Shown: in pieces, positions 25,706 to 29,868 of the stretch | Numbering within the stretch: position 1 is the first letter of the stretch | How the letters are laid out: the number at the start of each line of letters is the position of its first letter | Made by a program: the position numbers and the translations under genes | Notes under the pieces: model-generated | Database searches by the model: none | Seen by the model: only the letters and a program-made list of their open reading frames with translations | Told to the model about the DNA's origin: nothing | IMG/VR virus record: IMGVR_UViG_2851976983_000003 | Source: a virus | Lineage: Duplodnaviria; Heunggongvirae; Uroviricota; Caudoviricetes | Length of the DNA stretch: 45,144 nt | Reading direction: 5' to 3' (one strand)

Positions 25706-27625
25706 TTATCCTCCACTCAGAGCAGCTGCGATTTCTTCAATAGTCATTTCATCGTCGTCCTGTTCATCTCTTCTGGCGCGGGCCAGTGCATCCAGATCCA
25801 GTTGCCACCGCTGAACGGAAATGCGCAGCGCTGCATAGGCATACACCAGACAGTCCAGGGCTTCATTACGCCGTTTTCTGGCATCCCACTGGAGTTTCAC
25901 CCGCCCGTTCACAACTTTTTCAACCAGCTCTTCTGCCACGAGTTGTTTAGCTTCAACATCAGAAAAAATGTCCGGGTTATCCAGAAAACGGAAGGTATAC
26001 GGTGCTACTTCACTGGCAGATACCACCGGCAGGGCAAAACGCGCATACAGCATTTCCTTGACGGTATCGGAACCCACCTCACACAAAAACACCCCACGCT
26101 GGTTTCGCTTTTTTGGCATGGTGATCACCGGCTTGCCGTACACCGACGCCCCTTTGATGGGGAGCACAAAAAAAGTGCCGTGTTTTCTGGATCGCTGATA
26201 CACAATGTCCTGGTCAATACCACCGGTATCCCAGCAGACGCGGGAAATGGAAATTTCAGTGCCATCTGCATGACGGTATTTTTTCCGGATCACGGCATCA
26301 ACGCGTTTAAGGGTGTCCTCATCTTCCGGTCTCCCCATGATGATCTGCTTGTCAATCAGAAAAGCTTCTTCGCCAGGAGCCCAGCCCCAGACATAAATCT
26401 CATAACGGTTTTTCTGAGAGTCGATCCCTGCGGTCAGGTAAACCACCCGCAGGGGAACCTGCGCATCATAGTGGCAGACTTTTTCCAGCAACAACTCAAA
26501 GCTCAGTTTTTCTGCCACAGCCTCTTCATAAGGCTCCCCCAGCGTGGTGTTAATGAACGTCTTGACGCCATTCGGATCCTTCAGTGCATCAAGCCAGTCA
26601 TAAACAATCTGTACCCAGGTGGTGAACGGGCTGTATGCCGTCCAGATGTGGTACGAGATTGAGCGCGGTGGCGGGATTTCCTCATCACCGGCGCTGTAAA
26701 ATGTCAGACCGTCACGCGTCCACATCCCGGTATTGTCACAAATCCACCGCCCGTCGGTCTGGTCAAGTTCCGACTGCCGGATCACACAGCCATTATGTTC
26801 ACACAGGTAATACACCGTTTCCGGTTTACCCTTCTCCCATTTCAGGCCAAACGGCGTCGCATCATCGCCAAACTTCAGATACTGGGCTTCACCACAATGA
26901 GGGCAAGGGACATAAAATCGCATGAAATGCGCAGATTCATTCGCGGCTTTTTCAATCTGGCAAAAACCTTTAATTTTGGGCGTTGAGCCGCGTATGGATT
27001 TAGGCCATACCGAACCTTCGATACGCTTATCGCCAAGCAGGGTTGGTGAACCTTCTTTTTCCACATCCGGTTCAAACGAGGAGAGTTCGTCATAGCAGAC
27101 CACATCCACAGATTTTTCACGGTAGTTTTTGGCAGCAGCTCCGCCCAGACACCAGAATCCCACACCGGAGGAGAAACGTTTCAGGGTAAGCGTGTTGTCC
27201 CGATGTTTTCTGCCAAACCACGGAGCCAGCTCCAGTAATACAGGAACGTCTCTTATCGTTGGTTCGACATGGGATTTCATAAAATCTTCTGCCGCAGAAT
27301 CTGTCGGCTGAAAAAGCAGGCTGTTACGGGATTTGTGTTCAATAAAATAAGCCTCCACCCCCAACAGCATTTTGGTGTAACCAACACGCGCCGATTTAAT
27401 CAGATTAACGGTGCGGATCCGGTCATTCCCCATGCTGTTCATGATGGCAACCTGAAACGGCAGTGTTTCCCATTGCCCGGGAGTATATGAAGACTCTTTT
27501 GGCAGATAATAATACTGATCAGCCCACTGAACTGTCGTCAGTGGTACCGGAATATTGAGAGATACAAGCCCTGTTGCTATCGCACCGGCTGCATTAGCTG
27601 CCTTCTGTGCGTCTGAAATCATCAA
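25706..27625 (-). CDS. A: Terminase large subunit A
   Basis: 639 aa, lambda gpA-like; start overlaps the end of nu1 as in lambda. Confidence 0.95.
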
Positions 27626-28142
27626 TCCACCCGCCTACGTTCTCACCAGCTTTAGCTGCAACGTTGGAGGCTTTTGCGATTTCAGTTTTCACCACATCAA
27701 GGTGTGACGGTGAAATATCCGGATATTTACGCTGTAATGTCAGCGGCACACGTACAAGTATCCCCGAAATCTCCTGTGCCACACGTTGCAGAATGAAGGT
27801 AAACAATTCCGTTTCCAGTACCAGCCCTTCTTCGCGGGCATTCTTCAGTTCCTGTGCATCAGCCTGTGCTTTTGTGAGTCGGTAGCGTTCATAATCAATG
27901 GTGCCGGGTTGTAAATCTGATTCCGCAGCCGCACGCAAATCCTCGGTCTCTTTGCGGAGTTTTTCGTTTTCAATATCGGCTTCGCGTTGCGCATACCACT
28001 GAATTGCCATGGAGGTATCAAATACAGATTCAACGCCCTTACCACCTCCGGAGACGCAAGGGAGTCCCTGAGACTGCCAGCGTTCAATCGTTCGCGGATC
28101 CACGTTGAAAATTTCGGCAAGTTTCTTTTTGTTAACCTTCAT
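27594..28142 (-). CDS. nu1: Terminase small subunit Nu1
   Basis: 182 aa; [28 protein letters not shown]…ADIENEKLR…[29 protein letters not shown] closely matches lambda Nu1. Confidence 0.9.
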
Positions 28143-28149
28143 GAAACAG

Positions 28150-28330
28150 TCTCACAACAAACACAGGGTCCGACATGAAAGTGCCCGAAAATGACTTTTT
28201 TAGGCGTTTTCATGTCGGACCTTTTACGGATTCGATATTAGAAAAAACAAATAGTTATGTTCGAGAAGTACCGACATGATTTTCCCCGGAAAATTTTCAT
28301 AAATAGCGAAAACCCGCGCGCCTTCCGCCC
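28150..28330 (-). other. cos site: cosN-like nick region (12-nt end GGGCGGAAGGCG at 28319-28330) plus cosB with three ATGTCGG-type repeats
   Basis: Minus strand reads GGGCGGAAGGCGCGCGGGTTTTCGCTATTTATGAAAATTTTCCGG, nearly identical to the lambda left end GGGCGGCGACCTCGCGGGTTTTCGCTATTTATGAAAATTTTCCGG; about 180 bp upstream of nu1. Confidence 0.75.
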
Positions 28331-28604
28331 CGTGGCAGGCCACCCCACCGGAAGGACCCGCACAAATGAGAGCTTTTATCATTAACATTTACAGATAAGA
28401 TGACGTACATCATTGAAACGCCATTCAGCCATATACCGGCAGCATTCGTAGTTGCACTCCGTAACCCTGCGACTAAGGTTGAAAGCATGGCCATCTTTTT
28501 GCCACCGGCAAATCTTCAATGGATTTCCCCTGCCGGTTTTTTATTTCTCACATTATCGCAGCCACTCAGTGTGAAGGGCTGCTGTAATGCCGCAATCTTT
28601 TTTA

Positions 28605-28632
28605 ACATGAAAAAGGCCGCAGAGCGGCCTTT
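28605..28632 (-). terminator. Rho-independent terminator downstream of the 71-aa ORF
   Basis: ggccgc-aga-gcggcc stem followed on the minus strand by a T-rich run. Confidence 0.55.
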
Positions 28633-28651
28633 ATGGTTTATTGACAATTGA

Positions 28652-28867
28652 TTAAGACGTGTGGCACTTATTGGCACACCAATAGCAACCATTCACCCGG
28701 GAATATCCTTTGGCCTTTGCCTCTGTTACCGCCGAAGAACAATCACTATAGTAACCAAGGTAATCGCGGTTAGCTACAGCAGGAAGATATGAACATTCCT
28801 CAGCATGCACCTCATGATCGCCATTGCTCTGAGCATTTTTGTTCACGTAATAGTGTTTAAAAACCAT
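28652..28867 (-). CDS. Hypothetical small Cys/His-rich protein (moron between lysis genes and cos)
   Basis: 71-aa ORF with 5 Cys and several His (…NGCYWCANKCH), in AT-rich DNA and followed by a terminator; function unknown. Confidence 0.4.
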   Translation of the reverse strand: MVFKHYYVNKNAQSNGDHEVHAEECSYLPAVANRDYLGYYSDCSSAVTEAKAKGYSRVNGCYWCANKCHTS

Positions 28868-28990
28868 TGTATAACTCCATGTTGACGCTGATATTCAGCA
28901 TTAACATGCTATATCACCAATTACACAAACATAAGCTTGTTATTTCAATTAGTTGATAACGATCACCACTGAACTTTGGACTTGCGAAAT

Positions 28991-29200
28991 TCAAATGTTT
29001 TTCTGACTATTATTGGGCCGATAAACAGATATTATTTGAGCGTTTTGGTTCATTACATAAGCAATATCTCCATCTTTCAGAATGACTTTCCCATCCTTTC
29101 CCGATACGGCAATACTCCGCTGCTCTGGATGATAGCCAATGCTACGCCCGCAATGGAGCTCTTCCCCACCATTTTGAGACATGACTTTTACAGTTAACAT
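28991..29200 (-). CDS. Hypothetical small protein
   Basis: 69-aa ORF in an AT-rich segment in late-gene orientation; no recognisable motif. Confidence 0.3.
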   Translation of the reverse strand: MLTVKVMSQNGGEELHCGRSIGYHPEQRSIAVSGKDGKVILKDGDIAYVMNQNAQIISVYRPNNSQKNI

Positions 29201-29287
29201 TTTTCTGCTCCTATTTAGATGCCCTTTCCATCCGGGCCACTGTTCAAAGTAAATTTAGATTCAACAATATTCTGCTCTTACAGGCGA

Positions 29288-29470
29288 TCAGTTCTGCATA
29301 CACTGCCTGGCACTTTCGACAATTTCGCAGACCTGCGAGGCCGTATCGAAAAGCTGGCGCACCTTATCCAGGCTAACGCATCCCACCAGGAAAAAAGGCA
29401 CCAGTATCGCTACCAGTGCCCATTTCGCCGCCGTTCGCGGCATTCTGTGTGTCCAGTGTTTTCGGCTCAT
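29288..29470 (-). CDS. Putative small lipoprotein (possible spanin-like lysis accessory protein)
   Basis: Start placed at MSRKHW…; signal-like hydrophobic stretch and lipobox-like FFLVGC; overlaps the 3' end of the endolysin gene. Not Pro-rich like Rz1. Confidence 0.4.
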   Translation of the reverse strand: MSRKHWTHRMPRTAAKWALVAILVPFFLVGCVSLDKVRQLFDTASQVCEIVESARQCMQN

Positions 29471-29484
29471 AAACCACCTGGTTA

Positions 29485-29868
29485 TTAGCGCTTCAACTGA
29501 AAGTGAGGCCCGTCTTTCAGTGTTTTCCAGTCCCCGCCCCATTCGATGGCAGTTCCCAGCTCTGCGGCAGCCTGCTTAAATGCCTGCGCGATTTTCTCGT
29601 ACAGAGGCCAGTCCCATGACACCTGGCTACCAATGTAGGCCACAACATCCACCGCATCACCGGTCAGGTGGCGGCTGTTCATGGTCTGGCTTTTCCCTTC
29701 CGCGACCAGCTGCTTCTGGCGATACTTACTGCGCAGGCCTTCCGTAATACCGAAGTCAACCTCCGTCAGCTCCAGCGCACGGCGAACAACAGCAACCAGC
29801 TGTGGTTTGACGCCCTCCAGATTTTTCTCACTTCGACGACTGAATCTGAATTTACCGGGCATACTCAC
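29485..29868 (-). CDS. Endolysin, peptidase M15-type (L-alanyl-D-glutamate endopeptidase-like)
   Basis: 127 aa; SRHLTGDAVDV and GGDW…DGPHFQ zinc-binding motifs typical of M15 peptidases; sits in the lysis cassette. Confidence 0.8.
   Translation of the reverse strand: MSMPGKFRFSRRSEKNLEGVKPQLVAVVRRALELTEVDFGITEGLRSKYRQKQLVAEGKSQTMNSRHLTGDAVDVVAYIGSQVSWDWPLYEKIAQAFKQAAAELGTAIEWGGDWKTLKDGPHFQLKR

Follow-up and report, generated by a model that had tools for sequence, protein, structure and literature searches.

We characterized two small genes that lie between the lysis genes and cos of a lambdoid E. coli prophage, derived from a tailed phage (Caudoviricetes; IMG/VR virus record IMGVR_UViG_2851976983_000003). 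Hereafter, the window denotes the whole 45,144-nt stretch of DNA that was analyzed. On the evidence of sequence comparison, ORF71 (71 aa; 28652..28867, minus strand) and ORF69 (69 aa; 28991..29200, minus strand) are genuine, conserved and mobile genes that evolve under purifying selection and are presumably translated. Both ORFs, and the richness of the former in Cys and His (5 Cys and 4 His in 71 aa), had been pointed out in a preliminary description of this DNA, and both were found where it had placed them. On balance, the region is probably best understood as two separate mobile morons, one of which would encode a zinc-stabilized binding protein and the other a phage accessory or inhibitor protein. 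The moron-like position of ORF71 in other temperate phages, and that of ORF69 in the tRNA or anti-defence region of T5-like phages, suggest that they may serve in lysogenic conversion or anti-defence.

The variable slot and its two genes

Prophages in E. coli E24377A and in a number of further strains, mainly enterotoxigenic ones (ETEC), match the 1.2 kb around both ORFs with 100% identity. Prophage genes are here carried on the minus strand, on which three tRNA genes (tRNA-Met, tRNA-Thr and tRNA-Gly; 31300-30991) are followed by two holins (PF16931 and PF05449), an M15 endolysin, a 60-aa ORF with a lipobox, ORF69, ORF71, a terminator, the cos region, the small terminase gene Nu1 (PF07471, E = 9e-85) and the large terminase gene. 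GC content was 0.33-0.44 over 28.6-29.2 kb compared to 0.50-0.58 in the flanks. For phages phi458 and cdtI, only the cos-proximal flank was homologous, ending at approximately 28591, and for phage phiP27 only the lysis-side flank, beginning at approximately 29262. Given that homology breaks on both sides, the 670-bp block between these points (28592..29261; 40% GC) is an insertion in a variable slot. An AT-rich moron slot between the lysis genes and cos, as had been proposed from the sequence, is borne out. The ORF69-ORF71 pair was present in 44 of 5,426 E. coli genomes, and nine further genomes contained ORF71 alone. Patchy presence with two-sided homology breaks, deviant GC content and, for ORF71, a terminator of its own are features by which morons are recognized, and all of them were observed here.

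Several additional features of the locus were detected. A perfect 14-bp inverted repeat, GGTCCGACATGAAA...TTTCATGTCGGACC, occupies window 28168-28220, between cos and the start of Nu1; its only matches in Rfam were spurious sub-threshold hits to microRNAs, and an Rfam scan of 28100-29500 gave no match at gathering score. The ORF that follows the endolysin (29288-29470, minus strand; phrog_7528; 60 aa from the annotated start) contains a signal peptide and a lipobox (LVGC) and resembles an o-spanin or lipoprotein; an obvious partner i-spanin gene was not seen. A terminator-like hairpin was called within this ORF (29421-29396). In E24377A, the small terminase gene is directly before a Lom pseudogene and stfR, and head and tail genes are deleted. 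The large terminase gene of the window (25706-27625) is intact, and the window therefore derives from a more complete copy of this prophage than that of E24377A. In a Salmonella prophage (L011; 4370-4591 and 5248-5790), the slot occupied by the pair additionally contains DUF465, a second DUF2514 (Rz-like) gene and an opposite-strand DUF4145 gene, which shows that many different cargo genes accumulate in the slot.

Both ORFs are preceded by Shine-Dalgarno sequences (GGAG at 28878-28875 for ORF71 and AGGAG at 29212-29208 for ORF69). ORF length is uninformative in this region, because dinucleotide shuffles of 28592-29261 often yielded ORFs of similar size (at least one ORF of at least 65 aa in 54% of shuffles, and two on one strand in 7%). 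The gene status of both ORFs comes instead from homology, purifying selection and confident structure models. One or both ORFs might be regarded as chance open frames in AT-rich spacer DNA, given the frequency of such frames in the shuffles and the omission of ORF71 by RefSeq/PGAP from all four E. coli records inspected (E24377A, 504838, 67-1 and STEC316). However, this reading is refuted by the conservation data and retains a negligible probability: the ORFs have hundreds to thousands of homologues, the models reach a pLDDT of 95.6 for ORF71 and 91 for ORF69, and the reading frame is conserved in the sense direction only. An antisense ORF of 73 aa is also open in the window, but stops interrupt the antisense frame in relatives; for ORF69, the sense frame is open in eight of eight relatives, whereas antisense frames carry stops. 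Conservation and purifying selection had been named beforehand among the tests for these ORFs, and both were found, with approximately 1,900 cluster representatives for ORF71 and 180 protein clusters for ORF69. Comparison of ORF71 with its Salmonella prophage copy (75% amino acid identity) gave a dN/dS of 0.12, with synonymous sites near saturation, and pN/pS for ORF69 was 0.35.

ORF69 corresponds to RefSeq WP_000958717.1 ('hypothetical protein'). ORF71 has been annotated by GenBank submitters, and the exact protein occurs on at least 1,000 contigs. The RefSeq records of 504838 and 67-1 annotate instead a 58-aa protein, WP_001382523.1 (window 28516-28692, minus strand), whose frame overlaps the 3' end of ORF71 and crosses the terminator hairpin. 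This ORF is probably spurious.

ORF71: family, predicted metal site and cassette

ORF71 matched phrog_4298 over nearly its full length (E = 4.5e-32; residues 3-70 aligned to profile positions 1-69 of 70). Neither ORF71 nor ORF69 had a match in Pfam or NCBIfam, and PADLOC-DB HMMs gave no match at E <= 1 for either protein or for the neighboring lipobox ORF. Searches of PDB sequences with ORF71, by sequence and by profile, returned nothing significant, and a Pfam scan of 116 homologues at E <= 10 produced scattered noise only (for example Fer4 and MYND). The family itself is large. In a word-indexed search, all 812 candidates were ORF71 homologues (approximately 68 aa, 57-75% identity), every one of them labelled 'hypothetical', and an exhaustive profile search identified 1,922 representatives of 50% clusters at E <= 1e-3, including 941 at E <= 1e-10. 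Nearly all members are stand-alone proteins of approximately 68 aa with 55-75% identity; no domain fusions were found among the longer members, which showed only low-complexity or miscalled N- or C-terminal extensions. A scan of one genome per species yielded at least 582 confirmed loci, mostly from Bacteroidota among the matches listed. Other taxa included Acidobacteriota, Alpha- and Gammaproteobacteria, Actinomycetota, Planctomycetota, Gemmatimonadota, Myxococcota, Calditrichia, Fusobacteriota and Patescibacteria, and overall the family was represented in at least ten bacterial phyla. Literature searches by sequence motifs, accessions and PHROG identifier retrieved no paper on ORF71 or ORF69, and neither protein was present in the supplements of an accessory-gene screen (PMC12373910).

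The AlphaFold model of ORF71, built with 116 sequences, consists of strands at residues 4-9, 18-22, 34-40 and 58-60 and a helix at 43-52. Four residues, H21, C25, C61 and C64 (HX3C...CX2C), were essentially invariant across approximately 270 diverse homologues. C43 and C68 were lost together in nine of these sequences and singly in five and three, respectively, and H18 and H69 varied independently, with Tyr in place of the former and Asp, Tyr or Asn in place of the latter. This pattern indicates one essential tetrahedral site, H-X3-C...C-X2-C, and a separate, dispensable C43/C68 pair, which might serve as a weak second site or form a disulfide bond. ORF71 is thus very probably a metal-binding mini-protein, as had been suspected from its composition, and the predicted metal is most likely zinc, or possibly an iron-sulfur center. 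The zinc-ribbon fold that had been envisaged is not supported: a zinc ribbon has two CxxC-type knuckles on beta-hairpins, which make up a single zinc site in a three-stranded sheet, and this arrangement was not found. We propose that ORF71 is a cytoplasmic protein whose fold would be held by the single metal site (H21-X3-C25 and C61-X2-C64), and that the invariant loop YYVNKNAQSNGDHEVH adjacent to the metal is its probable binding surface. Identity of 55-75% between proteins from E. coli prophages and those from Bacteroidota and Acidobacteriota suggests that the ligand of this surface is probably universally conserved. A nucleic acid would be the leading guess; simple binding to DNA is not favored, since the protein carries no net charge.

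Two other readings of the Cys/His pattern were considered. Five conserved Cys residues, including C61-X2-C64-X3-C68 together with the distant C25 and C43, might indicate an iron-sulfur or redox-sensing mini-protein in place of a structural zinc protein. Several family members had weak matches to Fer4 (best E = 0.005), the family profile gave weak similarities to PsaC/Fer4 (E of about 2-10), and the coupled behavior of C43 and C68 would fit a redox disulfide. On the other hand, the Fer4 and PsaC matches are non-significant and confined to the last 20 residues, a His (H21) is among the near-invariant positions, and C43/C68 is dispensable in at least nine members, leaving three Cys and one His that fit zinc better; we regard an iron-sulfur or redox role as unlikely. 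The second reading, which makes ORF71 a genuine alkyl-acceptor or DNA-repair domain of the Ada type, is very improbable. Although Foldseek detected no PDB neighbor for the ORF71 model, the nearest structural likeness that could be named is the N-terminal zinc domain of E. coli Ada (PF02805; PDB 1eyf and 1u8b; sequence checked against PDB 1wpk). Its topology is strand-strand-[X3C]-strand-helix-[CX2C], and ORF71 matches this order and spacing: CX3C...CX2C in Ada and HX3C...CX2C in ORF71 have similar spacing, with (C/H)X3C following strand 2 and CX2C following the helix. However, Ada has a four-Cys zinc site that includes the nucleophilic Cys38, whereas the first ligand of ORF71, at the position of this acceptor, is an invariant His. 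In addition, no PF02805 match was obtained for ORF71 or any of the 116 homologues, even at E <= 10, hhalign of the ORF71 family against Ada residues 1-92 gave a probability of 0.1%, and ORF71 has neither an HTH nor an AraC partner domain. Because profile similarity to Ada is absent and the methyl-acceptor Cys is replaced by His, ORF71 is similar to the zinc module of Ada without belonging to its family.

ORF71 is part of a cassette in which a conserved leader of approximately 110 nt precedes the ORF and a dedicated terminator follows it. The terminator (28612..28632, minus strand), which had been noted earlier, lies 20 nt past the stop codon and is a GC-rich hairpin (-14.3 kcal/mol, z = -2.98) in which a 9-bp stem with 6 GC pairs closes a 3-nt loop, followed by a T-run. 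The Salmonella copy (L011) and the Klebsiella/Enterobacter-type copy (L212) have a terminator at the same position with a different stem sequence; no terminator was found directly 3' of ORF69 in the window. Within the leader, a 7-bp hairpin (AUGCUGA-loop-UCAGCGU; 28885..28901, minus strand) is conserved in relatives. Its stem was kept in five sequences, three of them with a G-U wobble, and the loop varied (AUA or AAAAA). The upstream end of the cassette is marked by a conserved 14-nt box, TGATCGTTATCAAC (28952..28965, minus strand), an imperfect inverted repeat that reads TTGAT-N4-ATCAA in Salmonella and may be an operator. Both the hairpin and the box are putative regulatory elements. A weak promoter candidate, TTGAAA-17 nt-TGTAAT (28920..28948, minus strand), was recognized by reading the sequence; the consensus scan did not call it, and relatives do not share its -35 element. 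A scan of 28100-29600 found no consensus sigma-70 promoter, which weakens the case for independent expression in the lysogen. The location of ORF71 and ORF69 on the late-gene strand leads us to expect Q-antiterminated late transcription, and the self-contained ORF71 cassette would be consistent with independent, possibly regulated, expression in the lysogen.

The cassette was found in a variety of contexts. In prophages of Shiga toxin-producing E. coli (STEC; L204, L206 and STEC316) it occurs without ORF69, elsewhere within the lysis region. The phage collection contained ORF71 in Vibrio inovirus vB_VipaK, Streptococcus prophages, Staphylococcus phage 187 and Erysipelothrix SE-1; it is flanked by opposite-strand genes in phage 187 and in vB_VipaK, and it is co-oriented with integrase and repressor genes in Streptococcus Javan420. 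On bacterial chromosomes, ORF71 was located in variable regions beside IS1595 transposases, a SIR2 and DUF87 pair, RmuC or a methyltransferase-HNH gene, and no conserved neighbors were detected outside Bacteroidota.

Homologues of ORF71 in Bacteroidota (Flavobacterium, Chryseobacterium, Pedobacter and others) were observed just 3' of genes for a TPR-histidine kinase and a response regulator with Response_reg and DUF5932 domains. This setting was present in seven loci (L100, L110, L111, L116, L126, L146 and L163) and in about 30 further loci of the species scan. The homologue belongs there to an array of small genes, all on one strand, that are arranged differently from genome to genome and include DUF4236, DUF1508/YegP, an HSDR_N-like nuclease, DUF4407, DUF6804, SNase, an EEP nuclease, bPH_3+SHOCT, TM2, a YidD-like gene and a Cys-rich SH3_3 protein. 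The array is an uncharacterized variable island and possibly a regulon of the two-component system.

The ORF71 family, with approximately 1,900 clusters, moves between chromosomes, an inovirus and siphoviruses that infect Gram-negative or Gram-positive hosts. It has no Pfam or NCBIfam model and no solved structure, and thousands of genes could be annotated together once its metal site and its ligand are defined.

ORF69 and its linkage to ORF71

ORF69 matched the entire phrog_3909 profile (E = 3.2e-36; residues 1-64 aligned to positions 1-64 of 64), and its model is all-beta. Nearly all of its clusters come from phages and prophages of Enterobacterales. Homologues were detected in 252 phage records, mostly T5-like Demerecviridae together with Vequintavirinae. 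Six virulent phages were inspected (Sugarland, Mydo, AKFV33, S116, KpS11 and SP15), and in every one the gene lay inside or at the edge of a tRNA array, a few to about 200 nt away from a tRNA; the flanking tRNAs differed by genus (loci L014, 3001-3192; L016, 2501-2695; L177, L178 and L179, each 1201-1395; L262, 6001-6195).

ORF69 and ORF71 were adjacent in 62 of 80 ORF71-bearing viral loci when both gene orders were counted, an association far above chance. Obligate co-occurrence would mark a toxin-antitoxin-like pair; here, frequent adjacency stands beside a wide distribution of each gene alone. The order seen in the window, ORF69 then ORF71 with a 127-nt gap, was found in all 25 near-identical IMG/VR loci, which are E. 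coli-type prophages. Among more divergent viral contigs with ORF71 (56-66% identity), 37 of 53 showed the reversed order, in most cases with some 70-75 nt between the genes. Salmonella prophages kept the E. coli gene order at 75-78% amino acid identity, with a different endolysin alongside.

Persistence of the adjacency in both orders, and of the same pair in Salmonella beside that different endolysin, could mean that ORF71 and ORF69 constitute one functional two-gene module, such as an effector paired with a modulator or antidote. On this view, ORF69 without its partner would serve T5-like virulent phages as a counter-measure, in the manner of T4 Dmd, which replaces a host antitoxin. We consider such a module improbable. 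ORF71 occurs without ORF69 in hundreds of bacterial genomes, in phages of Gram-positive bacteria and in an inovirus, and ORF69 lacks its partner in the genomes of about 250 virulent phages and at 42 of the 55 divergent prophage loci. Moreover, where the order is reversed, both genes have terminators of their own, one of which stands between them, and a single rearrangement combined with tight physical linkage could yield both orders. Because each gene is abundant alone and the linkage is explicable by one rearrangement, two autonomous morons that often travel together were ranked above an obligate module. A bolder proposal is that ORF71 represents a pan-bacterial mobile metal-binding family that built a new activity on an Ada-like HX3C...CX2C core, and that it is partnered or countered in enterobacterial prophages by the phage-only ORF69. 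This proposal is decidedly unlikely; if true, it would describe a new prophage-encoded conflict module whose viral antidote, ORF69, is kept in the tRNA or anti-defence regions of T5-like phages and Vequintavirinae.

The linkage of the genes in both orders provides a concrete, testable hypothesis. If neither gene gives a phenotype, they would merely be two more conserved hypothetical morons.

Comparison with known phage systems

Both proteins are already catalogued as PHROGs of unknown function. The matches of ORF71 to phrog_4298 and of ORF69 to phrog_3909 are full-length and highly significant, but these entries carry no function, and the bacterial ORF71 family far exceeds the phage catalogue.

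The moron concept for lambdoid phages reportedly goes back to Hendrix and Juhala. In lambda, bor is located between Rz and cos, on the strand opposite to the late genes. The preliminary description had likened the present genes to bor, and the analogy holds for position, as the slot between the lysis cassette and cos is common to bor and to ORF69/ORF71. Like lambdoid morons, ORF69 and ORF71 are AT-rich relative to their flanks and patchily distributed among related phages, and ORF71 has its own terminator. The analogy does not extend further: ORF71 and ORF69 are on the late-gene strand, whereas bor is on the opposite one, and neither is related in sequence to Bor or Lom. A Bor/Lom-type outer-membrane protein was rejected for both ORFs, as neither has a hydrophobic N-terminus, a signal peptide, a lipobox or a Pfam match.

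For ORF69, the closest setting is that of phage SP15, which has a tRNA-rich, dispensable 'anti-defence island' of approximately 8 kb that encodes Rad, tRNA-Tyr and anti-Ec83 genes (Azam et al., bioRxiv 10.1101/2023.03.15.532788). In the same part of the SP15 genome, the ORF69 homologue ORF58 terminates the tRNA array that also holds Rad, tRNA-Tyr and other anti-retron genes; no activity was attributed to ORF58 there, and it may be located just outside the 8-kb deletion. ORF69 of the window, unlike SP15 ORF58, is separated from the three tRNA genes of its prophage by 1.8 kb and the lysis cassette. This context hints at an anti-defence or host-takeover role, although location at tRNA arrays could merely reflect the plasticity of such regions. 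Given that ORF69 is near-ubiquitous in T5-like phages, in a region that holds anti-defence genes, it is a candidate counter-defence or host-takeover factor, and one that would be cheap to test. In addition, ORF69 shows a weak resemblance to T4 Dmd (PDB 5hy3_B) and AcrIF9 (7chr_A), which are small all-beta phage inhibitors. Together with its placement in the tRNA and anti-defence regions of T5-like phages, this likeness suggests that ORF69 may bind and block a host factor.
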